From Kiritimatiellia bacterium (GTDB lineage Bacteria > Verrucomicrobiota > Kiritimatiellia > RFP12 > UBA1067): a stretch of DNA of 64,000 nt. The notes under the pieces were generated by a model. It was not told the DNA's origin. It did no database searches and worked only from the letters and a program-made list of their open reading frames with translations. The first letter of the stretch is position 1; each line of letters opens with the position of its first letter. Positions 58 to 60,330 of this stretch are shown in pieces. Location: the NCBI GenBank assembly GCA_050949565.1, contig JBMNFY010000004.1, positions 32,001 through 96,000 of the forward strand. The letters run 5' to 3'. Position numbers and translations under genes: made by a program.

Positions 58-125
58 GATCCCGATCCCGATGGCGATGCCGATTTCGATGTGTCCGCAA
101 ACTCCTAACTCCTAAATCCTAAACT
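58..125. repeat. CGATNN hexamer run (58-90) plus C-rich heptamer run (CCTAAAT/CCTAACT, 100-125) upstream of gspE
   Basis: gatcccgatcccgatggcgatgccgatttcgat and actcctaactcctaaatcctaaact read directly; both families recur elsewhere in the window. Confidence 0.85.
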
Positions 126-203
126 TTCCTTCGCGCGCGGCGCGCGTTCAACAAAGTTGAATCGCGCCAAGCGCGTTTTAGGCATGGAAAATGCGCGTGT
201 CAT

Positions 204-220
204 ACCTTATACTATAAGGT
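204..220. promoter_or_regulatory. Perfect palindrome ACCTTATA-C-TATAAGGT overlapping a TATACT -10-like box; candidate operator/promoter of the gsp operon
   Basis: 8-1-8 inverted repeat, AT-rich, 43 nt before the gspE start. Confidence 0.45.
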
Positions 221-263
221 TTCGTTTTATGGGATCGGAATTTTTTGTGAAAGGATCGCCTTC

Positions 264-1958
264 ATGCCGGTTCAGCCGGATGCTTTTGCCGCCCTTGTCC
301 TGAAGAAAACAGGGCTGTTTACCGACTTGCAGCTTGACCATGTTTTGGCGGCTGACCGTTCGGACGGGACGGGTATTACGGGTGTGGTGGTGCGCCTGGG
401 GCTGGCGCGTGAGGATGAGTTCCTGCGCAAGATCGGCGAGGTGCTGGGCTTTACCTATACCGAATTGACGCAGACGCGGCCGACGGATGAGGCGCTGACC
501 AAGCTGCCGGCGCGTGCGGTGTACCAGTACAATGTGTTGCCGCTGACCGTCGATAACGGTGTGCTGACGGTGGTGACCTGTGATCCCTTCGATACCGGCA
601 TGACGGATGGCCTGCGGCTGGCGGCGGGTTGCCCGGTGCGGGTGACGCTTAGTCCGCGCGAAGAGATCAACAAGGCGGTTCAAAAATATTACGGCGTGGG
701 TGCCGACGCGATCGAGAAGATGATCGAGGATGGCCGCTATGCGGTGGACGCTGATCTGGCCTCGATCTCCAAGATCGATGTGAATGAGATGGGGGCCGAG
801 GCCTCGATCGTGCGCTTTGTGAACCAGATCATCGCCGAGGCGGACCGCCAGGGCGCGACCGATATCCACGTCGAGCCGATGGAGGACGAACTGCGGATCC
901 GTTACCGGATCGACGGCATGTTGCACAAGGTGGATGTGCCGCCGCAACTCAACCGGCTCAAGGCGGCGATCATTTCGCGTATCAAGGTCATGGCGAACTT
1001 GGATATCGCGGAGAAGCGGTTGCCGATGGACGGTCGTATCGGCGTCAGGCTCAACAATGACGACATCGACATCCGTGTCTCTACGATGCCGACGGCCTAC
1101 GGCGAGTCGATCTCGCTGCGTCTGTTGCAGAAGGCGGGCAACTTCGTTAAGCTGAGCGATCTTGGCTTTAATGATTTCGACTACGGCCATGTGGTCAAGT
1201 TGATCAACCGCCCCAATGGGATTTTTCTGGTGACCGGTCCCACCGGGTCGGGTAAGTCGACCTCGCTCTACGCCTTTCTGCACGAGATCAACAAGATGCA
1301 GGTGCGTATTCTGACGGTCGAAGACCCGATCGAGTACGAGATGCCGGGCATCAACCAAGTGTTGGTGCGGCAGGACATCGGGCTGACTTTCGCGCGTGCG
1401 CTGCGCGCCTTCCTGCGTCAGGATCCGGACATCATCATGGTCGGTGAAATTCGTGACGGCGAGACGGCGGAGATTGCGATCAACGCTTCGCTCACGGGCC
1501 ATCTGGTGTTCAGCACACTGCACACCAACGACGCGGCGGGTGCCTTCGCGCGCTTGATCGATATGGGCGCGGAGCCGTTTCTGGTGGCGTCAGCGGTGGC
1601 TGGCGTGATGGCGCAGCGCTTGGTGCGGCGGCTCTGCCTGAAGTGCCGTCGCGAGATTCCGCTGGATACGAAGTGGTATGATCTGTCGTATCCGCCGGCG
1701 AAGCAGACCGTCTGCGTGTCTGATGGGTGTGAGGCATGCACCAAGACCGGATATCGCGGACGTGGTGGACTCTTCGAGTTGCTGGTGGTCACGGAGGATA
1801 TCGAATCGGCGATCATCGGGCGCCAGTCTTCGAGCGAAATCCGCGAAATCGCGCTCACGCACGGCATGAAGACGCTGCGCGAGGACGGCTGGGCCAAGGT
1901 CTTCAGCGGCATGACGTCGGTGGAGGAGATCATCCGCGTGACGGAAGACGTGGCGTGA
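264..1958 (+). CDS. gspE: Type II secretion ATPase GspE/PilB family
   Basis: Walker A GPTGSGKS, TVEDPIEY, LRQDPDIIMVGEIRD, TGHLVFSTLHTN, tetracysteine CLKC/CEAC. Confidence 0.95.
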   Translation: MPVQPDAFAALVLKKTGLFTDLQLDHVLAADRSDGTGITGVVVRLGLAREDEFLRKIGEVLGFTYTELTQTRPTDEALTKLPARAVYQYNVLPLTVDNGVLTVVTCDPFDTGMTDGLRLAAGCPVRVTLSPREEINKAVQKYYGVGADAIEKMIEDGRYAVDADLASISKIDVNEMGAEASIVRFVNQIIAEADRQGATDIHVEPMEDELRIRYRIDGMLHKVDVPPQLNRLKAAIISRIKVMANLDIAEKRLPMDGRIGVRLNNDDIDIRVSTMPTAYGESISLRLLQKAGNFVKLSDLGFNDFDYGHVVKLINRPNGIFLVTGPTGSGKSTSLYAFLHEINKMQVRILTVEDPIEYEMPGINQVLVRQDIGLTFARALRAFLRQDPDIIMVGEIRDGETAEIAINASLTGHLVFSTLHTNDAAGAFARLIDMGAEPFLVASAVAGVMAQRLVRRLCLKCRREIPLDTKWYDLSYPPAKQTVCVSDGCEACTKTGYRGRGGLFELLVVTEDIESAIIGRQSSSEIREIALTHGMKTLREDGWAKVFSGMTSVEEIIRVTEDVA

Positions 1959-1966
1959 GGAGTGAG

Positions 1967-2043
1967 AATTTAGGAGTTAGGATTTAGGAGTTAGGAGTTG
2001 AGATGGGGCGGTTCCCAAAATTCCTAAATCCTAAATCCTAACT
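1967..2043. repeat. Inverted pair of heptamer arrays (TTTAGGA/GTTAGGA ... TCCTAAA) between gspE and gspF
   Basis: aatttaggagttaggatttaggagttaggagtt ... aattcctaaatcctaaatcctaact. Confidence 0.9.
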
Positions 2044-2059
2044 GACAGAGACTGGGTGC

Positions 2060-3307
2060 ATGGCGAATTTTTCTTACAAAGCGTTGACGAAAGACGGCCG
2101 CAAGGTCGAGGGTGTGCTGGAGGCGGCTGACCGCCGCGCCGCGCTGGCGGCGGTTGAAAAGCTGGGGCACACGCCGATTTCTGTGGTCGAGACCCGGAGC
2201 AAGCAGGCCAAGGCCAAGGGCACGCCGTTTTGGAAGCTCAAGATCGGCGGCGGCAAGGTGCGTATGAAGGCCACCGAAGTGCTACTCTTCACGTCGGAGC
2301 TGAGCGACCTGCTGGAGGCCGGCATGACGCTGGGCGCGGCGCTGAACTGTCTTGCCAATCAGGGTGAAGAGGATTCGGCGCAGAGCCAGATCGCCGGCGA
2401 CCTGCGCGACCGCATCATTCGCGGTGAGCAACTTTCGGACGCTGTGACGGCGCACCCCGACACCTTCCCGCCGCTTTACGGCAACATGATCCGGGCCGGC
2501 GAGGCGTCGGGCGCGATGATCGAGGTGCTGCGTCGTCTGGTGGAGCACTACGAGCGCAATGAGAGCATGCGTTCCAAGATCACTTCGGCGATGACCTACC
2601 CGATCGTGGTGTTGATCTTCGGGGTGGTCACGGTGATTTTCGCGATGGTCAAGGTGATCCCGCAGTTCGCCAAGATTTTCGAGGGTATGGGCACCACCCT
2701 GCCGTTGCCGACGCGCATTCTGGTGGGCACGAGCGATTTCGTCGTCAAGTACGGTGTTTTTCTGGCGGTGGCGATCGGCATAGGGGTGGTGATGTTCCGG
2801 CGTTATCTGAAGACCGATACCGGGCGCCTTTGGTGGGACGGCCTCAAGCTGAAAGCGCCGTTGATTAAGGGCATCGTGGCCTGCGGTGCGTATTCGAGTT
2901 TGGCCTATACCATGAAAACCCTGCTCGCCAACGGCGTGAATGTCTTGCAGGCGTTACGGATCGCCGAGGAGACTTGCGGCAATGCATTGATCGCCAGTGC
3001 CCTGCGCACCGCGCGTCAGCGCGTGACGGACGGCACCTCCATTTCCGGACCGCTGGCTACCAGCAAGGTGTTTCCCAAGATGATGACCGACATGTTGGCT
3101 GTCGGCGAGCAATCGGGCGACATGCCCTCGTCGTTGGGGCATATCGGGCGGCGGTACGAGAATGAGATGGACCGTAACATCAAGATTTTCACCAACGCAC
3201 TGGAACCGATCCTGATCGTGCTGATCGGCGGCGTGGTCGGTTTCGTGGCGGTCAGTATCCTGATGGCGGTCTTTAAGGTCACCTCGTCGCTCAGTCCGGC
3301 GGGCTGA
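2060..3307 (+). CDS. gspF: Type II secretion inner-membrane platform protein GspF/PilC
   Basis: N-terminal FSYKALTKDG, RAGEASG and AVGEQSG motifs, three TM segments, EPILIV. Confidence 0.95.
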   Translation: MANFSYKALTKDGRKVEGVLEAADRRAALAAVEKLGHTPISVVETRSKQAKAKGTPFWKLKIGGGKVRMKATEVLLFTSELSDLLEAGMTLGAALNCLANQGEEDSAQSQIAGDLRDRIIRGEQLSDAVTAHPDTFPPLYGNMIRAGEASGAMIEVLRRLVEHYERNESMRSKITSAMTYPIVVLIFGVVTVIFAMVKVIPQFAKIFEGMGTTLPLPTRILVGTSDFVVKYGVFLAVAIGIGVVMFRRYLKTDTGRLWWDGLKLKAPLIKGIVACGAYSSLAYTMKTLLANGVNVLQALRIAEETCGNALIASALRTARQRVTDGTSISGPLATSKVFPKMMTDMLAVGEQSGDMPSSLGHIGRRYENEMDRNIKIFTNALEPILIVLIGGVVGFVAVSILMAVFKVTSSLSPAG

Positions 3308-3354
3308 GCGGCATTGAGTGGTGCGGTAGGCATGTTCGACAGAACAAACAAAAG

Positions 3355-3509
3355 GAGGCACTTTAAAAAAACCTCGTAGCATGGGCGTCCCGCCCATGAA
3401 CACGGGCAAGATGCCCGTGCCACACCCCTCGTGGCATGGGCGCCCCCGCCCATGGGACACGGGCAAGATGCCCGTGCCACACCTGTGAGCAGGTTTTTGC
3501 GAGAGCCTC
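3355..3509. repeat. MITE-like shell with terminal inverted repeats enclosing two REP doublets (3376-3423, 3431-3480)
   Basis: GTAG/GTGG-catgggcgtcccgcccatg...cacgggcaagatgcccgtg-CCAC twice; ends gaggcac.../...gagagcctc; second copy at 62525-62625. Confidence 0.85.
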
Positions 3510-3526
3510 AGTAAGGAGAAAGCAAA

Positions 3527-3928
3527 ATGAAGAAAGATAGAGACGAAAAACGCAGGCGGAACCGCAGAAGCGGCTTCACGCTGGTGGAACTGCTGCTGGT
3601 GGTCTGCATTCTCGGCATCCTGGCCGCAGTGGTCATCCCGAATGTGATCGGCCATGACGAGGAGGCGCGGCGTCAGGCGACGCGCACGAGCATCGCGGCG
3701 ATCGAGCAGGCGGTGCAGATCTTTGCGATGCGCCATAACGGCAAATTGCCGGATTCGCTGGAAGAGCTGACCGTCGGGACCGATGATGCGCCGGGACTGC
3801 TGAAAGAGGGTGCGCTCGCAGATTCGTGGGGCACTCCGTTCCAGTACACCAAGACCGGCAAGAAGTTCAAGGTCGTCTCGGCTGGGCCGGACGGCGAGAT
3901 CGGCACCGAGGATGATCTCACGAACTAG
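3527..3928 (+). CDS. gspG: Major pseudopilin GspG
   Basis: RRSG|FTLVELL prepilin site; DSWGTPFQY and SAGPDG GspG C-terminal motifs; aaggag RBS. Confidence 0.93.
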   Translation: MKKDRDEKRRRNRRSGFTLVELLLVVCILGILAAVVIPNVIGHDEEARRQATRTSIAAIEQAVQIFAMRHNGKLPDSLEELTVGTDDAPGLLKEGALADSWGTPFQYTKTGKKFKVVSAGPDGEIGTEDDLTN

Positions 3929-4640
3929 GCGCCCCGGCGGCTTCACGCTGGTGGAGTTACTGGTGGTCATGGTGATCATCGGCGTGATGGCGCTGGTGAT
4001 CTTGCCGTCGTTCGGGACGGGTTCAGACATCGCGCGGATCAAGACCGCGTCGCGCGGGGTGATGCAGATGACGCGCTACGCGCGCACCATGGCAGTGCTC
4101 TACCAGACGCCGATGGATCTGGTGATCACGTCGAGCGGAGAATTGCGCGTTGAGCGTCGTGGCGGCGCTTCCGGAGGAGCGGGGGCCGCTACGGAAGGTG
4201 AGGATGCGCAGTCCGAGGCGTGGCGGCCGTCGGCCGAGCGCCAAGAGCTGGACGAACTGGCTACCCCGACCGATGGTGGGGAGGCCGCCGCAGGAGAGGG
4301 TGGGGGGAGCGGCTATGTCATGGCCGATCTCAACGCCTCGAAGCGTTACGAGCAGATCAGGTTTGTTGTGGCGCTTGACGAAGAGGCGCTGGAGTCGGAA
4401 GAGGCCGAGTTGCAGATCGAGGTGGAGGCGGACGAGGAGTCAGAAGACGCGGACGAATCCAACTGGGTTGACTCGGACAGGGAGCGGCCCCGGATGGCGC
4501 GGATCCCGTTCGAGACCAATGGGAGGTGTCTGCCGTTTGTTGTCCAGGTGATGGCTGGCGACGAAGATGCCGTGGATAGGATCACGGTGAAGGTCGACCG
4601 CTTCGGGGTGCCGAGGGTGGTCGATGAGGATGAGCGGTAA
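3912..4640 (+). CDS. gspH: Minor pseudopilin GspH-like
   Basis: Start reassigned to ATG 3912 (MISRTRRPGG|FTLVELL); acidic insertion; operon position. Confidence 0.75.
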   Translation: MISRTRRPGGFTLVELLVVMVIIGVMALVILPSFGTGSDIARIKTASRGVMQMTRYARTMAVLYQTPMDLVITSSGELRVERRGGASGGAGAATEGEDAQSEAWRPSAERQELDELATPTDGGEAAAGEGGGSGYVMADLNASKRYEQIRFVVALDEEALESEEAELQIEVEADEESEDADESNWVDSDRERPRMARIPFETNGRCLPFVVQVMAGDEDAVDRITVKVDRFGVPRVVDEDER

Positions 4641-5092
4641 TGCGGCGCGACGGATTCACGCTGATTGAGATTTTGCTGGCGACCATGATTCTGGCCGGCG
4701 GGCTATTCAGCCTGATGGTCGGGCTGAGCAATTGTGCCCAGATGATGGTGCTCTCAAAAGAGTATCAGGACGCGCAGTTTGTTTTCAGTCTGGGCGAACG
4801 ATGCTTTCCGATTCCACCGAATGACGAAATCACCGACCCCGAAGAGGACGAGCGGCTGAACATTGATCCGGTCGGCGCGGAAGAGATGATCGACGAACTA
4901 GAGATGGATGTGTCGCGGGAGGTTCGGGAGACTTACAAGGATTTCACTTTCGAGCGGATGGTCGAGGAGAAGGAACTGGCGACCAATGAAGAGGACGATG
5001 GCCTCTATGTGTTGCGCACGCGCATTTCGTGGGGTAGCGGTAAAGAGGGGTACTACGAGGAACTGGTGCGGCTGATCCGCAAAGGGAAGTAG
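4640..5092 (+). CDS. gspI: Minor pseudopilin GspI-like
   Basis: MRRDG|FTLIEILL; TAATG overlap with the upstream gene. Confidence 0.75.
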   Translation: MRRDGFTLIEILLATMILAGGLFSLMVGLSNCAQMMVLSKEYQDAQFVFSLGERCFPIPPNDEITDPEEDERLNIDPVGAEEMIDELEMDVSREVRETYKDFTFERMVEEKELATNEEDDGLYVLRTRISWGSGKEGYYEELVRLIRKGK

Positions 5093-5120
5093 ACAACTCA
5101 CCCAATCAAGAATGAGAGAG

Positions 5121-5477
5121 AAATCGGTTGGTGGCAAGGAGTCATGCTAGTTTAGTGCGTGGTTTGCGTGTGCGCAGTCGGGAGCGCGGGCGTCCCCGCC
5201 CGCAACAGCGTGTCTTGCGGTTTCTGTTTTGTCCGCAGATTTGCGCAGATTGCGCAGATTTTTTCATTTGCCCGCAGGGTGGGAGGGACGAGCGTCTGCT
5301 CGTCCGCGGGCAAGCAGACGCTTGCCCCTCCCGGCGCTCCGCGAGCCCGGATACCGCGCATCGGAATCTCAATCGGCCTTTCACAGAGCGGGCGGGGACG
5401 CCCGCGCTCCCGACTCACTGCTCCCCTTTTCACCAGAAAAGCATGATCTTCGCACATCCCCGTCACCAACCGATCAC
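5121..5477. repeat. Composite nested palindromic element: outer IR, 28-bp perfect inner IR (5176-5203/5388-5415), nested GGAG-REP doublet (5281-5332)
   Basis: Homologous copy at 53467-53722 and right arm at 20665-20712. Confidence 0.85.
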
Positions 5478-6426
5478 GGGCGAATCTTGCGAATCGCATC
5501 TGTGCAACACTGATTGCGGTCGGAGCAGTGGGGGTAAGGTACGGGGTTCCCGTTCGGGGTTTACCCTGCTTGAACTGATCATGGCGATCATGATCCTCGC
5601 GATCATGATGATCCTCTCGTTTTTTTGTTTTGATGCCGTGGTGCAGAGCTGGAACGCAGGCATGGAGATGTCGGACGCTATGTCGCAGGCCGATTATGTG
5701 ATGAATCAGGTTGTGTCCGGGTTGCGCTCCGCCTATTTTTCGCAGAGCGTGCAGAAGGACGATGAGCGCGGTTTTCAGTTTTCCGATGGCGGGGAAGGGC
5801 CGGAGGCGCGCGATTCAATTTCATGGATGAAAGAGGGGCGCGCTTTTGTGGGCGGATTGAAGGCGATTGACGGCAAGGCCGAAATCGCCGACATGCCGCA
5901 CCGCGTGATGCTGTATGTCGAGGACGAGGGACGCGAGGGCGGCGGCGGGTTGATGGCGAAGGCGTGGTCCAGCGATTTTCAGCCGGATGATTTTGATGTG
6001 GAAGAGGACGTCAAGGCCTTCTTGGTTTCGCCGCGCGTGATGGGGATGGACTGCAAAGTGCTGAAGAAGCCGCCGGAGGCGAATGCCAAAGAGATCGAGT
6101 GGGAGGACGAGTGGACCTCCTCCAACGCCCTGCCCTACAAGGTGTCGGTCACGCTCTATCTGCGGCCGCTGAAAGAGCGCGACGATCCGATCGCCGTGAC
6201 GCGCGACATCGAACTGCCGGTCTGGGATATCTCGCAGAATCCCGTTCGGAGCGGGGCGGCGTCGAATGAGAAGATCCCAGCGCGTTCGCCGCGCACCCAG
6301 TCTGGAACAGGGGCCGGCAGGGCCCCGCAGCCGGGCACGCCCGGTAGAGGGCCGGGCATGGATGGCATGCCGCAGCGGCAACCGATTGCGCCGGGCGGAC
6401 GTCCGCCGATGGGGGGGCCGCCATGA
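5443..6426 (+). CDS. gspJ: Minor pseudopilin GspJ-like; start uncertain (ATG 5443, or TTG 5128/GTG 5131), all candidates lie within the repeat
   Basis: RSG|FTLLELIMAIMIL at 5551-5600; LPYKVSVTL motif; Pro/Gly-rich tail. Confidence 0.75.
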   Translation: MIFAHPRHQPITGESCESHLCNTDCGRSSGGKVRGSRSGFTLLELIMAIMILAIMMILSFFCFDAVVQSWNAGMEMSDAMSQADYVMNQVVSGLRSAYFSQSVQKDDERGFQFSDGGEGPEARDSISWMKEGRAFVGGLKAIDGKAEIADMPHRVMLYVEDEGREGGGGLMAKAWSSDFQPDDFDVEEDVKAFLVSPRVMGMDCKVLKKPPEANAKEIEWEDEWTSSNALPYKVSVTLYLRPLKERDDPIAVTRDIELPVWDISQNPVRSGAASNEKIPARSPRTQSGTGAGRAPQPGTPGRGPGMDGMPQRQPIAPGGRPPMGGPP

Positions 6427-7874
6427 CGTTTTTAGGTTTCGGGTTTCGGGTTTCTGGTTTCAGTCGCACCGTTCGCGCGATTCACGCTGGCTTGCCGCAC
6501 ACGTTCATAGCGGAGCGGTTCGCGTACACGTACACGAAATACGGGCGGGGCACCGATTTCGATAGCGATACCGATTTCGATAGCGATTGTTTCGCCTGCC
6601 CGGTGCTAGATTTGGAGTGCGGCGGCAAGCGGTATTCCGCGCGACGCCGCTTTGGCGCGGACGGGCCGGAAAGCGGTGCCGCGACCCGCGCACAGCGCGG
6701 CTCTTGTCACCGCACTCCAAAATGCGTCGGACTCCCTTTTCACCGGAAAGATAAGGAGAGCGGCTCGGCGCTGATTATCGCGCTCTGGACGATCGCGCTA
6801 CTGTCATTGCTGGTTATGTCGTTTGCGCTGGACGCCATGCTGGAGGGCAAGATCAATGTTTACGTTCGGCAGCGGCGTCAGGTGGATTATTTGACACAGT
6901 CGGGCATTTCAATCGCCGAGATGCTGTTGCTGACCTACAAGAATGCGACGCCCGCCTCCACGTCGCCCACGACAGCCACAGGGGCGTCTTCGCAACAGAC
7001 GGCCGCAGGCGGGGATGAGGATGACAAGTGGTTGCAGGCCAAGCTTGACCTGCAGCACGGTTCCGCCAAGGTGAATGCATACGCTATTGAGCCGGACAAA
7101 CCCGAAAATGGCGTGGTGACGGTTGAGATCACCTCGGCTGACGCCAATAAGTGGCCGATCAATCTGCTGGTCAAAGGGGATATCGCCGACCAGATTTGGG
7201 AAAACATTCTGAATGTTATCGGGTTGCCGATGGAGTATCAGGAAGAGGTGGTCGATAGTTGGTATGACTGGCTGGACGCTGACAGCACCATCACCGGACG
7301 GAGCGGCGCCGAAGATGAGTATTACAACGATCTCGACAAGCCGTATAAAGTGCGGAACGGCCCGATCTCCTCGGTCGCCGAGTTGGAAATGATCAGGGGC
7401 ATCCGTGATCGACCCGCTATTTTCAGCGGCGGCGTCTTGAACCCCGAGGAGAAGAATAAGAAGGCGCAGGTCCGTATCCAATTTGGGCTTAAGGCTTTTT
7501 TTGACATCTATGGGGAAACTGTTAAGATCAATGTCAATTCCGCTGAGCTAGAGGTGTTGTTGACAGTGCCGGGCATCGATGGCGACAGTTTGTTGGCGAA
7601 TGCGATCATAGAAGAGCGGAGGACTGGCGCCAACCGGACTACATCAGGAGATGCGTCGGCCGAAAGCCTGTTGTTTAAAGACTGGAACGATCTGAACACG
7701 CGCATTCCCGGCGGTGTCCCGAGCGAGGCGGAGCCTTTTTTGGCTTACGCGCCTCAGAAGTATTTTGAAATCGCGGTGACGGGCGAGGCGGGAGGAATCT
7801 CGCACCAGATCAAGGCAGTGGCGATTGTCGAGGGCGACCGGGTGCGTTATCTGCGCTGGCGTGAAGATCCGTAG
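6423..7874 (+). CDS. gspK: Minor pseudopilin GspK with a 114-aa repeat-derived leader
   Basis: KESG|SALIIALW, DWLDAD, GAEDEYY, RNGPISSVAELEMIRG, ININSA-like motif, LRWRE end; ATGA overlap with the gspJ stop. Confidence 0.9.
   Translation: MTFLGFGFRVSGFSRTVRAIHAGLPHTFIAERFAYTYTKYGRGTDFDSDTDFDSDCFACPVLDLECGGKRYSARRRFGADGPESGAATRAQRGSCHRTPKCVGLPFHRKDKESGSALIIALWTIALLSLLVMSFALDAMLEGKINVYVRQRRQVDYLTQSGISIAEMLLLTYKNATPASTSPTTATGASSQQTAAGGDEDDKWLQAKLDLQHGSAKVNAYAIEPDKPENGVVTVEITSADANKWPINLLVKGDIADQIWENILNVIGLPMEYQEEVVDSWYDWLDADSTITGRSGAEDEYYNDLDKPYKVRNGPISSVAELEMIRGIRDRPAIFSGGVLNPEEKNKKAQVRIQFGLKAFFDIYGETVKINVNSAELEVLLTVPGIDGDSLLANAIIEERRTGANRTTSGDASAESLLFKDWNDLNTRIPGGVPSEAEPFLAYAPQKYFEIAVTGEAGGISHQIKAVAIVEGDRVRYLRWREDP
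6611..6721. repeat. TGGAGTGCGG...CCGCACTCCA REP-like palindromic doublet inside the gspK leader
   Basis: 6670-6719 is identical over 50 nt to 53359-53408. Confidence 0.9.
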
Positions 7875-7890
7875 GGAAGCGCATGTTGAT

Positions 7891-9312
7891 ATGACGAAGA
7901 GCGATTTGATAGCGTTGTTGGCGGAAGGCGGCGTGCTGCGGGGCGTGAAATTCGCCCCGCGCGGACGTGACGGCTGGACGCGTATCGGCGGAGGGGTCTG
8001 GCCGCTGGAGACGCCCGATGCCGAAGTGGCGGCTGACGAAACCGAGGTCGACGCGACCGCGCCCCTTGTGGTTGCGGACGAGACCGTGGTCGAGAGCGAT
8101 AAGCCGCTGACGCGGGCGTTGGTGGCGGCCCGTTCGGCGTTGGGGGCGCGTGACATCGTGTTGGCGCTGCCGCTTTCTCAGGTGTTGGTGCGTGTCTTCA
8201 AGATGCCGCTGGAGGTTCGTGACGACGTGGCGGATGCCGTGACGTTGCAGATGGACAAGCTCTCCCCCTTCCCCGGTGAGGAGTTGGCGGTCGGCTGCGA
8301 AATCCTGAGTGAAACCGAGTCGCATCTTTGGGTGTTTGCCGCTGCTCTGCCGGCTGCGGTTTTCGAAGAGTTGGGCGCGGCGTTGGACGAGGCACGCTTG
8401 CAGGCGGTGCGCACGGACGTCGCCGTGCTGGGCTGGCTGCGATCACTGAGCGGTCCCTGCCAACTGATGCGCCCCGGTCGGCGCGTGGTGTTGATGGATC
8501 CGGACGGTTCGTGGGATTTGGCGGTGCTGGATCACGGTGTGCCGGTTTTGGCGCGCGGTCTGGGCGGGGCTGCATCCGTTGAAGATGTGATCCGGGAGTT
8601 GACCCTCTCCCTGTTGAATGCCGAAATGGAGGCCGGTGGCGGCACGGTGGCTGAGGTGTTGGTGGTCTCGCAGCAAGCGCCGGACCGGACGCTCGTCGAA
8701 AAGCTGCGTGACTTGACCGGTGCCGAAGTCCGGCATGTGGTGCCGCCGACGCCGGACGGCGGGGTCGAGGGCGTGGCGCTGCGTGCCGGCGAGGGCGCTG
8801 CGTTGGACCTCACGCCGCAAGTGTGGCGCGACCAGATCAAGGCGTTGCGCGTCCGCAAGCGGGTCATGACCGGCGTGGGGATTGCGCTGGCGATATGGGC
8901 GGGGCTGATGGGCACGCTCTTCGCCGGGCCGGCGGTTTACAAGCAGCTCACCGCGCAGGTCCGCAAGCACTCGCGCGCGCACGCCAAGGCCTATAGGCAG
9001 GTCTCCGACACGCGCGAGCGCGTCAACCTGATCGAGTCCTACACCGACCGCTCCCGTTCGTCGCTGGAGATGCTGCGCTTGGTCTCCTCGGTCTTGCCAC
9101 AAGGGGTCACGCTGATCGGATTCACGTATCGGCGCGACGAAGGCGTGAAGGTTTCGGGCGAGGCCGATCAGCCGACGGTGGTTTACGATTTCAAGAATGC
9201 GGTGACCGAAAACCCGCTGTTCGAATCGGTCGGGTTGGTCGGCCCTTCGATCAGCAGGGGCAAGCATAAGTTTGACGTCGACGCAACGTTCAAGGGGAGG
9301 CCTGAGAAATGA
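7891..9312 (+). CDS. gspL: GspL-like (PilM/PilN-like) assembly platform protein
   Basis: Actin-like cytoplasmic region (LSPFP), single TM, PilN-like periplasmic domain (VKVSGEA); operon position; ATG 7891. Confidence 0.7.
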   Translation: MTKSDLIALLAEGGVLRGVKFAPRGRDGWTRIGGGVWPLETPDAEVAADETEVDATAPLVVADETVVESDKPLTRALVAARSALGARDIVLALPLSQVLVRVFKMPLEVRDDVADAVTLQMDKLSPFPGEELAVGCEILSETESHLWVFAAALPAAVFEELGAALDEARLQAVRTDVAVLGWLRSLSGPCQLMRPGRRVVLMDPDGSWDLAVLDHGVPVLARGLGGAASVEDVIRELTLSLLNAEMEAGGGTVAEVLVVSQQAPDRTLVEKLRDLTGAEVRHVVPPTPDGGVEGVALRAGEGAALDLTPQVWRDQIKALRVRKRVMTGVGIALAIWAGLMGTLFAGPAVYKQLTAQVRKHSRAHAKAYRQVSDTRERVNLIESYTDRSRSSLEMLRLVSSVLPQGVTLIGFTYRRDEGVKVSGEADQPTVVYDFKNAVTENPLFESVGLVGPSISRGKHKFDVDATFKGRPEK

Positions 9313-10088
9313 GTACGGTGACCTCCCGCGAGAAGAACATGTTGCTGATAGCCGTGGTGGTGCTGCTGTATGCGGCCGCAGCCCTGAGCTACAAAAAGCA
9401 GATGACGAACTGGAAGGCGGCGGAACGTATCTACCGGTCTGCACAGAAAAAAGTGCAGGAGGAGCGCGCATTGATTGCAGCCCGCGACGAGTGGAGTGCC
9501 CGTTATGCACAGATGCGCGACCTGATGCCGGTGTTCCCGTATGAGCAGGATGTCGATACCTACTGGCTGAATGTCATGGATGCGGCGGCGTCGCGCAACG
9601 GGCTCATGATCGCGCGGCGTCAGGCCAACAAAGAGATTGAGGTCGGCGATGTCTACGAACTGCCGATTGAGTGCAAGGATTGGGAGGGCACGCTTGAGGC
9701 GTTGGTCAAGTTCCTCTATGATTTGCACAAAGAAGGAGCCATGCTGGATGTGCGGCAGCTCTTTATCCGTCCGGCTAACCGGCCGGGCTATCTGAAGGGG
9801 ACCTTCACCCTGTACTGCGCTTACATGCGGGGTGACGATGCCCGTCCGCCCGCCGGAAAGCAAGCCGCTCCGGCTGCGGCGGTGGACGCGGACGCGCCGT
9901 CGTCAGAGGGCGACGCCGGCACGCCAGTCCAAGCGCCGTCTGAGGCGCAGCCGCAGGCAGCCCCCGAGGCGGTGCCCGAGCCTCCTGAGCCTGCGCCGCT
10001 GCCTGAGACCGCGAACACGACGAACACTCCGGCGGCCGCACCGGCCGCCGGGCCAGTGCCTGACGAGCCCGAAGGGAATGTGCCGTAA
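9309..10088 (+). CDS. gspM: GspM/PilO-like protein with Pro/Ala-rich tail
   Basis: TSREKNMLL plus TM, coiled coil, WEGTLEALVKFLY; ATGA overlap. Confidence 0.7.
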   Translation: MSTVTSREKNMLLIAVVVLLYAAAALSYKKQMTNWKAAERIYRSAQKKVQEERALIAARDEWSARYAQMRDLMPVFPYEQDVDTYWLNVMDAAASRNGLMIARRQANKEIEVGDVYELPIECKDWEGTLEALVKFLYDLHKEGAMLDVRQLFIRPANRPGYLKGTFTLYCAYMRGDDARPPAGKQAAPAAAVDADAPSSEGDAGTPVQAPSEAQPQAAPEAVPEPPEPAPLPETANTTNTPAAAPAAGPVPDEPEGNVP

Positions 10089-10118
10089 GCAGACACCACG
10101 TTTTGTGAGGAAACACGT

Positions 10119-13073: not shown

Positions 13074-16000
13074 TGGCTGGGTGGTGCTGGGCAGTGCTGG
13101 GTGCGGCCGGCAAGCATGTCTTGGTCGCTATTGTGGACTCGGCGAACTGCTATGCGAGCCGCCATGTCTTGCTTGCTATTGTGGACTCGGCGAACTGTTA
13201 TGCGAGCCGTGCGTTCAAGCGCAATGTCATCGATAACGAAGGCTGGGCGGACTGGCGCGAGGGGAATGCGGAAAGCCTGCTGCTGGTCTGGTGGGACCGT
13301 GCCGAGATCCCTGAGCGGACTTGGTCAGAGACGGCGTTTCTTTTTTCATCGGGCGGGGAGTCAGCTTCGCTCTCCACGCCGCTCGTGGCGGTCTTCTCGC
13401 CCGATGGTATGCTCGCAGTACCGGTGATCGATAATGCGGAAGGCGTACTGCTGGATTTTGACGCATTCACGGAGGCTGTCGATGAGCGTCTTGAGGCGTG
13501 GGCGGATGTGCCGTCCGGTGCGCTGGTCTGGCCGCCCGTGACGCAGGCTTCTGGTCAGCGCGCGCGCTGGTCGCTGGATTACTACGGATCGCGCGAAAAA
13601 GGATTTGCCAAGCAGTGGCCGGTGTTGGTAGCGATTGTCGATTCGGGCGTAGCATCGGCGACAACCGAGGCGTGGGTGCGCGGTGTGTTGATGTCCGAGG
13701 AGTGGCAGGATTGGCTGGACTCCACGAACATCCTGCTGGTCTGGTGGGATCGCGCTAAGATTTCACGGGCGCAGTGGGACAAAGTGGCCTTCCTGTTTGC
13801 GTCTGGCGAGGGCGGCATCGTGTTGCCGCAGATGGTGCTTTTTGATACGAACGGGTTGAAGGTCGATCAGTTTCTCGCAGTCAACAACGGGGATAACAAT
13901 CTGTCGAGTGCCGGTGACTTCATTGATCGGCTGGATGAGGCGATGGAGTGGGACGGCCTCCAGATCGGGCCCGGATGGGTCGGGTTCACGGATCCGGCGC
14001 AGACCGTGTCGGCGACCACCAACGCTGTGACGGTGACGGTGAAACGTTGGGGTGGCGCGAGTGAGGGGGCGCAGACCTTCCGTGTGTTCACGGTGTCGGG
14101 GAGCGAGACGAACGCGGCGGTTGCGGGGATTCACTATAAATCCGTAAACGCTTCGGTGAGTTGGGCCGCTGGGGAGAGCGGCGAGAAAACGGTTATCGTA
14201 CCGCTATTGGACGGCGCCGATGTCATCGTGACCCAGCGCGTGTTTCATGTGAGATTGGAGAAAGGGGCGGGCACTACGGCGAAACTGGGCACGACCAATC
14301 ATACGGTTACGGTCGATTATGCGCCGGGCGTGATCGGCTTCACGACGAACGCATTGACCGTGTATGCCGGAAGCGATTACGCTGAAGTAACGGTGCGGCG
14401 ATCTGGCGGGGTGCTGGGCAAGCAGACAGTCACGCTGAAGACGCATGCCGGAACCGCCGCCGCTTATTTCAAAACGGTGACCACCAATCTCGTCTGGGCG
14501 TCGGGTGAGTTAGGCGATAAGCAGGTGCGGATTCCACTGCAAGGGGATGCGCTGGATTTTGGGGCGCCGCTGACGGGGCAGGTTTTCTACGCGGTGTTGT
14601 CGCCGGCGGCGACCAATATGACAGCCCGGCTCAGTATCACTAATCAGGTGATTACGCTTCAAGGCTCTGCTTCATCTGCAGGCGACTGGAAGTATGATAG
14701 TAGCAACGGCGTGTGGCGCGTAGCCTCAAACACGAGCCAAGCCTCTGCATTGACGTGGGGTGCCCGGGAAGGAGGCTGGCTTACCTTCGCGTGGCACAAG
14801 ATTACTTCTGGCGGCACGCTTGCGGCAGCGTTGCCCGGTGTGGTCACCAACACGGCGGTGACGGATGTGACCAACCGCGTGGCACTGGCGCAGGGAACCA
14901 ACGTTGTGTGGATGCTCACCAACTGCACAGCGACGGTCAAGCTACTACGCTGGGAATCGGCGCAGGTGCAGCTGAGAGCGCCCGCAGACGGTTTCAGCGC
15001 GACAAACAAGATTGTGACGCTTTCTTGGGAGGTGCCGTCCGATAGTGTTGTGACCTCGTATCTGTACTACGCGCAATCACCGGATCCGATGCCGATGCAG
15101 CAACATGTCGGCGTCGCCGTGACCAATCAAGTGTCGTATACCAATGCCACGCCGGGTGCCGTTGAGTTCAAATGGCATGTGGAGATGGATATCCACGGGG
15201 ACTTGCAGACAACCGCACGAGTAGTGGGGCCGACGTGGTCGATCAACTTCCTGAAGCGAAAAGAGGTGTCGGTGGCGACACCCCCACCGGTTGCTGCCAG
15301 TGCTTCGCCGAATATCGTGCTGTATCAATACGTGCCGGCGCGCATCCCGATGGCGGAGCGTCTGAAGGCCGTGCACGGCGCGGCACGCCGCTATACGGCA
15401 AAGGGACTGCCGCGCGGATTGAAAATTGATGCGTCCACCGGCATCATTGCCGGAACGCCGAAGCGTGCGGGCACATTCCGCGCGACGGTCAAAACGACAG
15501 CAGCCGGGGCGGCATCCGCTGTTGAATTGGAGATCGAGGTTCTGCCCTGTCCGGCGTTTGCGCTGGGCGAGTTTCAGGGCGTGGTGCTGGACGAAGCGAG
15601 CCGGGTGCGCGGTGCGCTCGTGCTCAAGGTGTCGAAGAGCGGTGCGCTGTCGGGCAAGCTCGAAAGCGGCGGTCGGCGCCAGTCGCTGCGCGGTGCATGG
15701 GTTGAGGGAGACGAACAGGCGTGGACGGTCAGGCTGTCCGCCGGTCGTGCCGAGGCGATGGCCTTGGCTCTTACCTCCGAGGGTGCTGAGGGCGTGACGG
15801 TCGAGGGCTGGCGGGTACTGGCGCGGCAGGTCGCGTCCCCGCAGGCGGCCCAGCAGGTCGCGGGGGCCTACACGGCGGTGCTGCACGCCGAGGCGGCGGA
15901 CGCCTCCTGCGCACCGGCTGGCTATGGTTTCATGACATACACAGTGGCCTCACGGACAGGCTCGGTGAAGTACGGTGGGGTTTTGGCCGATGGGACGCGC

Positions 16001-16528: not shown

Positions 16529-16530
16529 TG

Positions 16531-16695
16531 GGTGGTGGCTGGGTGGTGCTGGGCAGTGCTGGGTGCGGCTGGGCGCAGGCCCCCAGAGACACCCAGCGCC
16601 ACCCAGAGGCACGCAGGCAGAGCAGGGCGGGTGGTGCTGGGTGGTGCTGGGCAGACCCCAGAAACACCCAGTTCCACCCAGAAACACCCAGCTCC
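16531..16695. repeat. Two hairpins of inverted decamer arrays (GCTGGGNNNN)n ... (CCCAGNNNNA)n
   Basis: gctgggtggt gctgggcagt gctgggtgcg gctggg / ccccagagac acccagcgcc acccag; second arm pair 16627-16692. Confidence 0.9.
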
Positions 16696-16715
16696 CCAAA
16701 AAAAGAAGGCACGAT

Positions 16716-17288: not shown

Positions 17289-17389
17289 TGCTGGTGCTGG
17301 GACTGGCTGGGGCTGGGTCATGCTGGGTAGCGCTGGGTATGGCTGGGTGGGTCCCCAGAAACACCCAGCGCCACCCAGAAATACCCAGC
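17281..17389. repeat. Third decamer hairpin array directly downstream of the four-helix-bundle gene
   Basis: gctgggtcat gctgggtagc gctgggtatg gctggg / ccccagaaac acccagcgcc acccagaaat acccagc. Confidence 0.9.
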
Positions 17390-22798: not shown

Positions 22799-22799
22799 A

Positions 22800-50236: not shown

Positions 50237-50445
50237 TTATTGCGACCACCCAGTGGTCGCAATGATGAGTGTAAAAACGGGCGGGAGGATGGGCACCGGG
50301 CGCGCACAGGGCATGCAATGAGGGGTGCGCGCGGGAAGACAGCCCAGGAAAACGCCCGAAATGCTGTGAATGGTCACGGGCGGGGCGGGGCTACGTGGTT
50401 CAAGGTTTTAACCTCACCTTTGTGACCACTGGGTGGTCACAAAAA
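50237..50445. repeat. Second, inverted copy of the about 205-bp palindrome-ended element
   Basis: Reverse complement aligns along the whole of 22843-23046. Confidence 0.88.
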
Positions 50446-50544
50446 GTGGCTCGCAATGACGGGCGTAAAAATGGCGGCGTGAGCATCGTAAAAAATCTCT
50501 GCGTCTCCGCGTCTCTGCGTTAAATAAAACGATTTGTGGCCGGT

Positions 50545-52989: not shown

Positions 52990-53737
52990 GGTAATCGGTT
53001 GACATAAGGGTAATCGGTTAGTGACAGGGAGGGTGCTCGGTTTTTTTCACACGAAGGCACAAAGGACACGAAGGTTTTTTGGGAGGCAGGGCTCGGGTTT
53101 ATTTAACCACGGAATACTGAACATACGGAAAGGCACAGCTCTGCTGTTTCACGCGAAGGCACGAAGATTAGAGGGCGAGTGTCCCCACGAGCCGCCTTCC
53201 GCTGCGCGGAAGGATGGGAGGGACGAGCGTCGCTCGTCCGCGGGCAAGCAGACGCTTGTCCGGTACTTAGCAAGCCTGACAACTGGACTTGCGGTGACAA
53301 GCGGTATTCCGCACGACGCCGCTTTTTGAGCATGAGTACGGCGGCAGGGCTGTGCGCAAAAGCGGTGCCGCGACCCGCGCACAGCGCGGCTCTTGTCACC
53401 GCACTCCAGATTTGGACGACAAAGGGACAGGTATTTAGACCATGGAAAGTTGAGCGTTGGGCGTTGGGGTAATCGGTTAGTGACAGGGGGCACGCGAGTT
53501 TAGTGCGTGTTTTGTGCGTATGCAACTGGAGGCGGGCGTCCCCGCCCGCTCTGTGAAAGGTCGATCGAGATTCCGATGCGCGGTTTGGTTTCCAATGGAA
53601 GTGGGCGCATCAATCTTTTGCAAGACACGTTGTTGCGGGCGAGGACGCCCGGCTCCAGTTCTCTGCTCTCCTTTTCACCAGAAACGCATAATCTTCGCAC
53701 TCCCTGTCGCTAACCGATTACCCGATTACCCGATTAC
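52990..53737. repeat. About 750-bp mosaic of at least seven repeat families in a divergent intergenic region
   Basis: GTAATCGG octamers, CACGAAG nonamers, CACGGA run, GAGGGCGAG REP, GGGAGGGACGAG REP, TGGA..TCCA doublet (53283-53409), composite element (53467-53722). Confidence 0.88.
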
Positions 53738-58179: not shown

Positions 58180-58246
58180 AACGACTAGGCATCCGTGTCC
58201 ATTTTCGTTATAGTTCAACCGAAAACAGTGCCCTAGAAAAGGAGCC

Positions 58247-59467
58247 GTGGTTGTGAAAAACATTCATGTTCAGGCGCAGAAAGACCATATCACCTCGCTA
58301 TGTACGGCCTCTCCGATTCAGGCGTTGGCCGAGCTTATCTGGAATGCGCTCGATGCCGACGCCTTTGATGTGAAGGTGGACGTCATCCAAAACGCGCTGG
58401 GTGGCATTGATGCGATTCGGGTGGCGGACGATGGCCAGGGCATCAACGCGCTGGAGGCGGATCAGCATTTCGGTAATCTCGGCGGTTCGTGGAAGCGCGA
58501 TGTGAACCGGACGCCGCTTTCGGGACGCGTGCTGCACGGCAACAAGGGCAGGGGGCGTTTCAAGGCGTTCGCACTCGGCAACCGGGTCGAGTGGCGGACC
58601 ACGCTGGAGGTTGACGGCGGTCTGCGCTCGTTCGTGCTGGCGGGCTCGGCTCATGATCCCAGTCTGTTCACGCTGACCGCAGCGGCAGCGCCTGGGCCGG
58701 CCACAGGCACAGAGGTGATGATCACGGACATCCGGCAGGACAAGGGTTCGCTGCTCGACACCGTCTGGGTGGTGCAGCAACTCGCCTCGCATTTCGCACT
58801 CTACCTTAAGGCTTATCCCAACGTGCGCATCTACTTTCAGGGATTGCTGGTCAGTCCTGTGATCGTGCAGCAAGCCAGCCGCCTTTACCATCTGAAATCC
58901 TCAGAGGGCGCCAAGGCCGACCTTCAAATCATTGAGTGGAAGACCAAGCAGGGACGCGGTAAAGTGGTCTTCTGCGACAGCGACGGCTTTGCGCTTCACG
59001 AAACCGACGCGGCGGTGCGTCCGGGCGGTGGCTTCAACTTCACCGCCTATCTGATAAGCCCACGGTTCGCCGCCTTGCACAACGAGAATCTGCTGGTGCT
59101 GGACGAGATGCATCCGGAGACCGTGGCGTTTCTGGACGCCGCGCGCGATATCCTGCGCCGCCATTTCCGCGAGCGGCGCGAGGAGTTGACCTCCGAACTT
59201 GTGCAGCAGTGGCACGACGATGGTGTCTATCCGTATGACGGTGAACCGGCCGATAAGGCCGACCGCGCTGCACGCAAGCGCTTTGACGGTTGCGCCCTTG
59301 CGATCCGCGCCTACTCCGACAACTTCGACACCATGACGGTCGTGGAAAAGAAACTACTCTTCCGCCTGCTGCGCGAGACGCTGGAGGCCAATCCCGATGG
59401 GACGACGCTGATCGCCGACCTGCTGGGGGTGCCGCCCAAGCGTCGGCGCGAGCTGCAGAAGCTGTAG
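58247..59467 (+). CDS. GHKL (MORC/MutL-like, HATPase_c_3) ATP-binding protein, possibly C-terminally truncated
   Basis: ELIWNALDA, DDGQGI, GNKGRGRF, GTEV motifs. Confidence 0.8.
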   Translation: MVVKNIHVQAQKDHITSLCTASPIQALAELIWNALDADAFDVKVDVIQNALGGIDAIRVADDGQGINALEADQHFGNLGGSWKRDVNRTPLSGRVLHGNKGRGRFKAFALGNRVEWRTTLEVDGGLRSFVLAGSAHDPSLFTLTAAAAPGPATGTEVMITDIRQDKGSLLDTVWVVQQLASHFALYLKAYPNVRIYFQGLLVSPVIVQQASRLYHLKSSEGAKADLQIIEWKTKQGRGKVVFCDSDGFALHETDAAVRPGGGFNFTAYLISPRFAALHNENLLVLDEMHPETVAFLDAARDILRRHFRERREELTSELVQQWHDDGVYPYDGEPADKADRAARKRFDGCALAIRAYSDNFDTMTVVEKKLLFRLLRETLEANPDGTTLIADLLGVPPKRRRELQKL

Positions 59468-59478
59468 TCATCGAAAAC

Positions 59479-59555
59479 TGGTGGGCGGCGAGGGACTCGA
59501 ACCCCCGACATTCTGGGTGTAAACCAGACTCTCTAACCAACTGAGATAGCCGCCC
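59479..59555 (-). tRNA. tRNA-Val(TAC)
   Basis: 77-nt cloverleaf GGGCGGC..TCTGG-TTTACAC-CCAGA..TTCGAGT..GCCGCCCACCA. Confidence 0.97.
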
Positions 59556-59613
59556 GGAAAGGACGCCTATTATGCCGGTTAAGTTGCGGTATATGCAAGC
59601 GTAGAATTGAAAA

Positions 59614-60207
59614 GTGACTTGCGATTCTGATTCATTGTATGCCCGCGCGGCGGATTTGTTGCGAGCGGGCGGTGTGGTGATTATCCCGACAGACACCGTT
59701 TACGGCATTGCGGCGCATCCGGCGTGCGCCGATGCCGTGGTGCGTATTTGTACGATCAAAGGACGCCCGTCCGGCAAACCGGTCGCGTTGCTCGCAGCCG
59801 ATCTCGCCGCCGTGCTTGCCTACGGGGCGGCGTTGCCGCCCGCCGCACGACGTCTGGCGACACGCTTTTGGCCGGGTGCGCTGACGCTGGTGTTGACGTG
59901 TGATGACGGTCGCGAGGAGGGGTTCCGCGTGCCTGATCACGTTGCGACGTGTCGTCTGTTGGCGGCCTGCGGCGGAACGCTCAGGGTGACCAGCGCCAAC
60001 CTGAGCGGTGCGATGCCCGCAGTCAGTGCTGTCGAAGCATTGCGGGATGTCGGGCTCGAAGCCGATATGGTCATTGACGGCGGGGTCTGCCCGGGCGGCG
60101 TGGCGAGCAGCGTGGTGCGTGTCCGCCCGGATGGCACGCTGGAGATTCTGCGCGAAGGCGCGATTGATGCTGAGACGATTCAGGGAGAAGTAATAGGTAA
60201 TAGGTGA
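59614..60207 (+). CDS. tsaC: L-threonylcarbamoyladenylate synthase
   Basis: PTDTVYG, KGRP..KP, FWPGALT, RVPDH, TSANLSG. Confidence 0.92.
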   Translation: MTCDSDSLYARAADLLRAGGVVIIPTDTVYGIAAHPACADAVVRICTIKGRPSGKPVALLAADLAAVLAYGAALPPAARRLATRFWPGALTLVLTCDDGREEGFRVPDHVATCRLLAACGGTLRVTSANLSGAMPAVSAVEALRDVGLEADMVIDGGVCPGGVASSVVRVRPDGTLEILREGAIDAETIQGEVIGNR

Positions 60208-60330
60208 GAGGTTCCTATGGGAGGGACGAGCGTTGCTCGTCCGCGGCGGCGTTCCACGCCGCCTCACCCGCAGTACCGGCAGTGCCCGCAGCCAGCCCCT
60301 CAAAAAATCTGCGTCAATCTGTGGTTGAAA

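Follow-up and report, generated by a model that had tools for sequence, protein, structure and literature searches.

Tandem-repeat arrays in the spacers of a Kiritimatiellia genome follow a mirror-symmetric orientation rule

Short tandem repeats fill many of the spacers between genes in the window analysed here, the whole 64,000-nucleotide (nt) stretch of a Kiritimatiellia bacterium genome (G000:C4:32001-96000; genome of 4.66 Mb in 21 contigs, 60% G+C). By Pfam, the genes beside them include T2SSE, T2SSF, a secretin, L13, histidinol dehydrogenase, PfkB, a 3-deoxy-D-manno-octulosonic acid (Kdo) transferase, GT2, GH95, GH2-like and Sua5/YrdC genes, as named in an earlier reading of this DNA made from its letters alone (hereafter the sequence-only reading); the arrays, too, lie where that reading had put them, as judged by Tandem Repeats Finder (TRF) and the spacer sequences themselves. 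It had claimed that many unrelated repeat families take one orientation after stop codons and the complementary orientation before start codons, with no clear exception, and had inferred a single transcription-oriented mechanism. We find that an orientation rule does hold throughout the genome, as a tendency of about 80% that has exceptions but lies far beyond chance, and that it is strand-symmetric: every spacer tends to read X...X', with a purine/G-rich arm (X) first and its pyrimidine-rich complement (X') last, whatever the directions of the flanking genes.

Orientation of arrays relative to gene ends

TRF called 3917 non-redundant arrays in the genome, and 76 rows in the window. Genes were predicted with a purpose-written caller (hexamer log-odds, greedy selection) that returned 3130 genes and 82% coding DNA; its stops are exact, whereas its starts are often too far downstream, which truncates genes, and some genes are missed. 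Arrays are concentrated between genes, with densities of 2.53 per kb in non-coding and 0.42 per kb in coding DNA, and the intergenic share is 528/686 for arrays of period 7, 464/599 for period 8, 575/1011 for period 9 and 154/196 for period 14. At least one array is present in 806 of the 1951 spacers of at least 60 nt (~40%), so whatever orients the arrays shapes nearly every gene boundary. Our main set comprised the 2037 intergenic arrays of period 5-20 that have a gene on each side. For each family the stop-type orientation, X, was learned only on other contigs (leave-one-contig-out), which avoids circularity; X tends to be the purine/G-rich orientation and X' the complementary, pyrimidine-rich one.

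Scored in this way across the genome, arrays were in orientation X after stops in 256/301 cases within 60 nt, 125/176 at 60-200 nt and 63/113 beyond 200 nt (the last not significant), and before starts in 15/61, 43/160 and 115/211 cases at the same distances. Within 200 nt, X was found in 159/194 arrays of convergent spacers, 207/262 on the stop side and 33/129 on the start side of tandem spacers, and 13/74 in divergent spacers; removing three families that belong to an abundant MITE (miniature inverted-repeat transposable element) changed these values little (124/154, 199/249, 31/118 and 13/68, respectively). Cross-validated binomial p values for these orientation counts reach 1e-20 to 1e-37. 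The directional part of the earlier claim thus survives a genome-wide scan, with 523 of the 659 labelled arrays within 200 nt of genes obeying the rule (79%), but its statement that there is no clear exception does not, as the other 136 disobey. Ten of the 12 window arrays whose family orientation had been learned elsewhere follow the rule. The two exceptions are the array at 21381-21405, the 3' arm of a compact hairpin that a truncated hisD start places on the stop side, and a mid-spacer array at 31403-31418.

Individual families show the same behavior. On the sense strand of the nearest gene, ACGCAGAG arrays split 63:11 after stops and 10:40 before starts, and AGGATTT arrays 51:10 and 11:24; by spacer half, the ACGCAGAG family divides 36:16 on the left and 5:67 on the right. 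Spacers labelled at both edges obey the rule at both in 62 of 87 cases, and where arrays are neighbors on the same spacer side they tend to point the same way (odds ratio 2.15, p = 0.008). Polarity depends on position within the spacer: counted by rank from the gene boundary, 418/514 arrays (81%) obey at rank 1, 129/187 (69%) at rank 2, 39/76 (51%) at rank 3 and 89/181 (49%) at rank 4 or more, and among rank-1 arrays 278/323 obey within 60 nt and 21/39 beyond 200 nt.

Stated on sense strands, "X after stops, X' before starts" places X toward the left of the spacer and X' toward the right in all four gene arrangements. Because the reverse complement of X...X' is again X...X', the statement is identical on both strands, and reading 5' to 3' outward from either end of a gene gives X. 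A transcription-polar signal would hold one orientation at both ends of a gene. Since the orientation instead flips between the two ends, and occurs in divergent spacers that contain no stop at all, a transcription-oriented mechanism is not supported; of the earlier proposal, the part that is supported is a cause shared across families. What looked like a grammar becomes a testable structural statement, namely that spacers read X...X' on both strands.

A supply of stop codons from the arrays was considered as a cause and rejected, as it explains only stop-abutting arrays: at -15 to 20 nt, arrays that close more frames in the outward direction lead by 90 against 43, but at 60-200 nt the trend is reversed. 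In the pfkB-family gene (28725-28743) and the Kdo-transferase gene (39932-39949) the last codons and the stop lie within the arrays, which thus encode C-terminal residues.

Table 1. Arrays, hairpins and related features of the window (X and X' as defined in the text; z, RNA folding energy relative to shuffled sequences).
Position	Strand	Feature	Details
57-122	+	(CGATCC)4.7 and (AACTCCT)3.3, X'	141-179 nt upstream of T2SSE and upstream of a promoter-like site at 185-213; both agree with the rule
1955-2062		Hairpin without an open reading frame (ORF), filling the T2SSE-T2SSF spacer	5' arm (AGGAGTT/AGGATTT)6 at 1958-1999; 3' arm (TCCTAAA)2.9 at 2022-2041; fold of the + strand -41.9 kcal/mol (z -5.7), of the - strand -34.1 (z -6.3)
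5176-5415	+	MITE-like element of ~240 nt	~25-nt terminal inverted repeats; (CGCAGATTTG)2.9 at 5234-5261; three GC-rich hairpins; other genomic copies 84-94% identical
6435-6461	+	Solo arm (GGTTTCG)3.9	8 nt past a stop codon
13069-13103	+	(GCTGGGTGGT) array	At the secretin gene stop (13073)
16525-16700		Two successive hairpins; 5' arms of GCTGGG type, 3' arms of CCCAG type	16525-16616 and 16629-16695; fold z -2.7 and -3.9
16716-17288	+	Four-helix-bundle gene (23S-rRNA-IVS-protein family plus suffix domain; IVS, intervening sequence)	Between hairpins; TIGR04258 67.7 bits, TIGR02436 29.4 bits; PF05635 28 bits, under the cut-off
17289-17427		Hairpin	GCTGGG arrays at 17289-17348, CCCAG array at 17354-17388, then (GCAAAACT)3 upstream of L13
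21325-21412		ORF-less triplet-arm hairpin	(CACGAAG/CACAAAG)x3 ... (CTTTGTG)x3; arm type that brackets GxxExxY genes in relatives; -42.2 kcal/mol (z -6.9) on the + strand, -33.9 (z -7.0) on the - strand
22800-22836	+	Solo arm (GTAATAG)5.3	1 nt past the hisD stop; agrees with the rule
28725-28762	+	Solo arm (TTTAGGA)5.4	Lies in a convergent spacer of 52 nt and overlaps the pfkB stop (28743); neither strand folds significantly (z -0.6 and +1.0)
31170-31194	+	(ACGCAGAG)3.1	10 nt from the start of a minus-strand beta-helix gene; X' on that gene's sense strand; agrees
39932-39979	+	(GAGTTCATTAGTGCAT)3	Overlaps the Kdo-transferase stop (39949)
42062-42180	+	Spacer after GT2	X-oriented (GATTTAG)4.9 and (ACGCAGAG)2.1, followed by a T-run/G-run linker and, ahead of the next gene, X'-oriented (CTTTGTGGC)2.8; whole spacer no more structured than shuffles (z -0.2)
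50496-50520	-	(CGCAGAGA)3.1	24 nt past the GH95 stop; agrees
52990-53737		Divergent spacer of 930 nt	Left, GGTAATCGG copies and "linker plus triplet" modules in X; right, (CCGATTAC)3 at 53714-53737
60190-60205	+	(GTAATAG)2.3	At the stop of the Sua5/YrdC-family gene (60207)

Hairpins, loop genes and modular frames

Several arrays of the window are joined to their own complement (Table 1), and these plain array-plus-complement hairpins (1955-2062, 16525-16700, 17289-17388 and 21325-21412) fold more stably than shuffled sequences on both strands, with z between -2.7 and -7.0. Elsewhere the space between the two arms holds a small gene. A 131-amino-acid PD-(D/E)XK protein (PF13366, GxxExxY) on contig 15, reached from an array with a 45-nt period, is encoded by a gene with 17 ACGCAGAG modules to the left and CTCTGCG modules to the right, and the window itself carries a gene of the 23S-rRNA-IVS four-helix-bundle family between hairpins. 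The genome contains six to seven GxxExxY genes and, for the four-helix-bundle family, nine strong (PF05635 over the cut-off) and six weak matches, the window gene among them; TIGR02436 matches four loci in addition to the window gene. Inverted repeat arms bracket all six small-gene loci examined in this genome, with arms of 21-48 nt that are 71-100% complementary and the gene on either strand.

The same arrangement recurs in relatives. PF05635 matches were found in 25 of the 31 genomes searched, and in all 16 four-helix-bundle loci of relatives, drawn from 16 genomes spread over the order, inverted tandem-repeat arms enclose the gene, with a unit that is different at each locus; the G-rich arm, as read by eye, comes first in all 16, only slightly so in L135. 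In nine of ten GxxExxY loci of relatives the bracketing arms each consist of three 8-9-mers (CACAGAG/CGCAGAG/CACGAAGG type), again purine-rich arm first, and these triplets are those that are common as solo arrays in the present genome. Taken together, 25 of 26 small-gene loci in relatives lie in X-gene-X' brackets, and over our own loci and the relatives' four-helix-bundle loci the arms measure 21-96 nt with 71-100% complementarity. Every locus examined sits between protein-coding genes, and none in a 23S rRNA helix. The small genes therefore read X-gene-X', the inverse of the rule as first proposed for genes in general, which is what a palindrome centred on the spacer predicts. Among the mechanisms that the sequence-only reading had offered, an unknown insertion process comes closest, given small genes of two families inside such brackets, although their arm order runs against the rule it was meant to explain. 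Two very widespread small gene families of unknown role are thereby tied to one genomic habit, the loop of purine-first tandem-repeat hairpins.

Arms can also grow into satellites, as in the 17 copies of a 45-nt module at G000:C15:16569-17326, a ~2-kb run of 114-nt units adjoining a GxxExxY gene (C17:1380579-1382733) and ~27 copies of the GGTTTCGGG unit beside a four-helix-bundle gene in L115 (C18:11030-11290). In relatives, many four-helix-bundle genes are no more than a few hundred bases away from a contig end, which would be expected if the arms break short-read assemblies; counts of repeats and elements in metagenome-assembled genomes are therefore underestimates.

The repeat families are not independent of one another, and the earlier description of them as unrelated does not hold: many share one modular frame or sit within the same MITEs. 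The ACGCAGAG arrays have a conserved frame: first comes a T-run/G-run linker that closes with GCTCGG and a T-rich stretch, next three 8-mers, and last a T-run. Joined to this frame end to end are more linkers and other triplets, of the CACAGAG, CACGAAGG, CACGGAA and GCCAAGG types. A strict linker pattern has 167 matches and is itself polar (70:9 near stops, 29:42 near starts). A MITE of ~300 nt with 18-nt terminal inverted repeats (27 aligned full copies, internal copy number variable) carries (GGTTTCA)n, (CGGGAT)n and a 9-mer hairpin. It is non-coding, lacks a transposase and is multi-copy: in a 3.7-kb query, similarity is confined to ~300 nt, where as many as 65 matches overlap at one position. 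Duplications of 5 nt, candidate target-site duplications, were seen by eye at some but not all of the copies inspected. Terminal inverted repeats of the kind that define MITEs were found in two families, this one and the window element at 5176-5415, whose interior arrays differ among copies, and not around every array.

The repeats match no Rfam family. Rfam matched only a flavin mononucleotide (FMN) riboswitch (RF00050, 92 bits; window 23582-23729, plus strand), upstream of a gene starting at 23761, and a tRNA (59482-59555, minus strand). Nor do the solo modules have the form of intrinsic terminators, as they finish with T-runs, yet no significant hairpin precedes these (z -0.3 to +0.7); terminator-like sites in positions 1-20000 of the window number 23, against 17.4 in shuffled sequences.

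Explanations for the mirror rule

Comparison of orthologous spacers, which the sequence-only reading had proposed, shows that whole spacer contents can differ between genomes; for the closely related genome G002 it extends over only ~51 kb of clean alignment, and the contigs of G002 are mosaic relative to those of G000. At the T2SSE-T2SSF junction, stop and start lie within a few bases of each other, with no spacer, in three genomes (G010, G016 and G017), other purine-rich arrays are present in G001 and G007, and a TTAGGAN/TCCTAAN hairpin is shared by five of the genus's genomes, one of which has it in degenerate form; G002 has one extra unit. Two orthologous spacers differ wholly in content between G000 and G002 while their flanking genes are ~97-98% identical; one of the G000 alleles has a REP-like (repetitive extragenic palindromic) palindrome nested in the loop of a triplet hairpin. 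Over those 51 kb, just two indels are 6 nt or longer, and both are single-unit changes within arrays. The two commonest array families are concentrated in this genus, a comparison in which the fragmented assemblies of relatives undercount repeats. These comparisons show the spacer elements to be recent additions. As a separate observation, G002 contigs L095-L114 are mosaics of distant G000 regions, and two ~4.1-kb insertions (L102) are absent from G000; mosaics and insertions reflect either rearrangements or misassembly at repeats.

We consider it somewhat probable that the arrays are the paired, solo or eroded arms of palindromic spacer elements resembling IVSs. On this account the spacers would harbor a large, fast-turnover population of stem-loop elements, each with a purine/G-rich tandem-repeat arm (X) on the 5' side of a loop and the complementary arm (X') on its 3' side, and an element lying between two genes would set X beside the left gene and X' beside the right gene independently of gene direction. 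Complete elements would carry a small loop gene, for a 23S-rRNA-IVS four-helix-bundle protein or a GxxExxY PD-(D/E)XK-family protein; most copies would be gene-less, and many would have been reduced to one arm or interrupted by later insertions. A surviving arm would keep its own side of the spacer, so that polarity would be retained beside genes and blurred in the interior. The geometry of palindromic elements would thus account for the mirror rule, and later insertions in the interior for the fall of polarity with rank. As for why the purine arm comes first, it may supply a ribosome-binding-like sequence to the loop gene in either direction, or the order may avoid exposing a pyrimidine/C-rich, Rho-attracting RNA before the partner arm has been made.

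Several observations weigh against this account. An inverted partner is detectable for only 150 of 2037 arrays by a strict criterion, or 158 of 1343 by a sensitive one (~12%; control 3.5%), and arrays without a partner are equally polar (316:77 at stops, 43:141 at starts), so that erosion or turnover of partner arms has to be assumed. Outermost arrays more than 200 nt from a called gene lack polarity, a loss that pure geometry does not predict unless uncalled genes intervene. The G-first order is a weak majority among detectable pairs (39:27 by family; 93:105 by pair), in a count that lumps true hairpins together with the many copies of one MITE hairpin and with large host genes in X'...X brackets. 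One four-helix-bundle locus, C20:20448-20933, is C-first. The terminal-repeat MITE is biased as well (13:7 after stops, 1:7 before starts); its insertion should be orientation-neutral, so the bias points to selection or to insertion bias. It is likely that some orientation-dependent selection near genes also acts. Two further propositions are not supported: a universal G-first rule for all detectable inverted pairs of the genome, on the counts just given, and the idea that paired arms mark operon-internal spacers, as paired fractions are similar across all contexts.

Selection on orientation could alternatively be the main cause, if the arrays act as directional transcription barriers, a kind of Rho-type insulation that shields genes. 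Transcripts that come into a gene from outside, by whichever end, would read a pyrimidine/C-rich, unstructured X' that resembles a Rho-loading site and be terminated, transcripts leaving it would read a harmless X, and insertions facing the wrong way would be lost. We regard this as rather unlikely, though far from negligible. It would explain why polarity tracks distance from the gene and not rank alone, as seen in the rank-1 arrays, and why the rule extends to the ~88% of arrays without a partner arm and to the terminal-repeat MITE. Composition points the same way: a composition-only predictor, applied to held-out families, is right in 68-70% of cases (GG/AG outward, CC/CT inward), the inward-reading strand is C/CT-rich in ~68% of arrays, and Shine-Dalgarno-like 5-mers are distributed 289:84 and 148:54 between outward and inward strands. 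RNA in the X' orientation has almost no structure (-5.4 kcal/mol over 81 nt in one case), the genome carries a rho gene, and orientation-dependent effects on transcripts are established for the ERIC and BOX small repeats (PMC3049150). However, 46 of the 61 arrays within 60 nt upstream of starts are in X', where they would be part of the gene's own leader and should terminate that very gene. Several G/C-neutral families are still strongly polar, the arrays are short, and paired arms are not enriched in co-directional spacers.

A transcription-oriented grammar, in which complementary arrays at the ends of genes or operons pair in the mRNA for processing or stability, appears improbable. Spacer hairpins within an operon do fold very stably, complementary arrays of the same family flank 12 of 155 genes where 4.6 are expected by permutation, and at least 12 large genes are bracketed X'...X by one family. 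But the flanking arrays come from different families in 143 of the 155 genes, the commonest families would give same-family pairs by chance, the small loop genes have the inverse arm order, and the flip of orientation between gene ends and its presence in stop-less divergent spacers argue against it here as above. RNA stems that bracket genes, one of the possibilities raised by the sequence-only reading, hence fit only a minority of cases, whether counted as complementary arrays flanking a gene or as partners within one spacer. In a comparison of sense and antisense hairpin stability (a wobble-pair test), a single MITE hairpin in its many copies and a single satellite locus made up most of the set. 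The window region is present in six metatranscriptome runs, and the assembled contigs of three RNA libraries and one DNA library all break at arrays; as RNA and DNA contigs break alike, transcript ends, processing and co-transcription cannot be read from them.

Avoidance of outward promoters seems about as improbable a cause as pairing in the mRNA, or slightly more so. Here the arrays would carry promoter-like sequence in the X direction, and copies that fire into the neighboring gene would be selected against. Hexamers resembling a -10 element are indeed commoner on the outward strand (238:127 near stops, 139:86 near starts), an excess that comes largely from one family, and orientation-dependent promoter activity has been reported for BrickBuilt, a MITE that bears a minisatellite (PMC4596501). 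Two-hexamer matches of the sigma-70 type, a consensus that may not be that of this lineage, occur in only ~5% of arrays, and they lie 47 outward and 27 inward among 875 arrays near stops and 19 outward and 26 inward among 526 near starts; motifs as scarce as this could not account for the rule.

Replichore strand bias, general compositional skew or chance, the first of which had been named as able to overturn the rule, is very improbable: although GC skew is positive throughout the window and its genes are mostly on the plus strand, so that this single window could mislead, the rule persists for both gene strands in both skew regimes (for example, at stops, 111:12, 64:17, 94:37 and 97:24), the alternation of X with X' takes place within 100 nt, and spacer DNA outside the arrays has no mirror skew, as its sense strand is rich in G on either side of genes.

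Relation to known elements

The IVS-like elements that we favor as the source of the arrays share features with several known systems and differ from each. In REP/REPIN-RAYT systems, a few gene-bearing loci flanked by inverted repeats coexist with very many gene-less palindromic copies in spacers. The spacers described here likewise combine a few bracketed, gene-bearing loci with many gene-less palindromic copies, but here the loop genes belong to families other than the Y1 (HUH) transposases, and each arm is a tandem-repeat array, with many different sequences among them. The short tandemly repeated repetitive (STRR) sequences of cyanobacteria are tandem heptamers in intergenic DNA. Tandem 7-nt units concentrated between genes are common to both, but the host here belongs to the Planctomycetes-Verrucomicrobia-Chlamydiae (PVC) group and is not a cyanobacterium, so these arrays fall outside the definition of STRR; a literature search on STRR orientation found nothing related.

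The 23S rRNA IVS, such as the 428-nt Coxiella element with its S23p/four-helix-bundle ORF (PMC4990558), provides a close parallel in gene content, since it too has a small ORF of the PF05635/TIGR02436 family in a stem of flanking inverted repeats; it is described as behaving as selfish DNA. The present elements differ from it in lying between protein-coding genes and not in rRNA, in having stems made of short tandem repeats whose unit changes from locus to locus, in their many ORF-less and one-armed copies, and in a second ORF family (GxxExxY) that has a second arm type. BrickBuilt of Porphyromonas gingivalis is one MITE family with a 23-nt internal repeat that is similarly non-autonomous, intergenic, multi-copy, variable in its internal array and orientation-dependent in its effects (PMC4596501), whereas here hundreds of unit types fall under one orientation rule relative to both gene ends. 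For the pneumococcal BOX, RUP and SPRITE repeats, ERIC and Correia elements, placement or orientation relative to genes is shaped by selection, copies are enriched between convergent genes, and elements nest in one another; within the available part of the same source (PMC3049150) these biases are of location or of a single orientation effect, with no mirror rule at both gene ends across families. In the searchable text of a 2024 review of MITEs (PMC10969869), the terms "orientation" and "tandem repeat" occur zero times each.

Neither a mirror orientation rule across families nor four-helix-bundle or GxxExxY genes inside tandem-repeat hairpins were found described in the literature searched, from which subscription journals and supplements were largely absent. 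It is possible, though doubtful as a whole, that the spacers across this entire order of the PVC group harbor an undescribed class of selfish elements: an Avd/S23p-like or GxxExxY gene in a hairpin loop, with locus-specific tandem-repeat arms in a near-invariant purine-first order, in which the nuclease-family protein would drive mobility or arm formation, and the thousands of gene-less or one-armed arrays would be progeny that impose a mirror-symmetric directional environment at every gene boundary. If the elements are mobile, they would offer a new route by which compact bacterial operons gain structured spacers; if their orientation is selected, they would provide a genome-wide case of directional gene insulation.

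Other repeats accompany the arrays. REP-like perfect palindromes of two related types recur in spacers (window 22850-22875, 23035-23060, 50240-50265 and 50425-50450), and the genome has five Y1_Tnp (RAYT/IS200-like) matches over the cut-off, one of them at C4:30024-30218, just upstream of the window; the palindromes and these genes possibly form a separate REP/RAYT system. A 57-nt unit of two GC-rich hairpins is present as a tandem duplicate after T2SSF (window 3372-3483), recurs at 62540-62600 and is also found within the loop of a triplet hairpin at C17:877812-878075. Within coding DNA, the beta-helix-repeat protein gene at 28796-31159 contains an 87-nt tandem repeat in 4.2 copies (window 30243-30614, minus strand).

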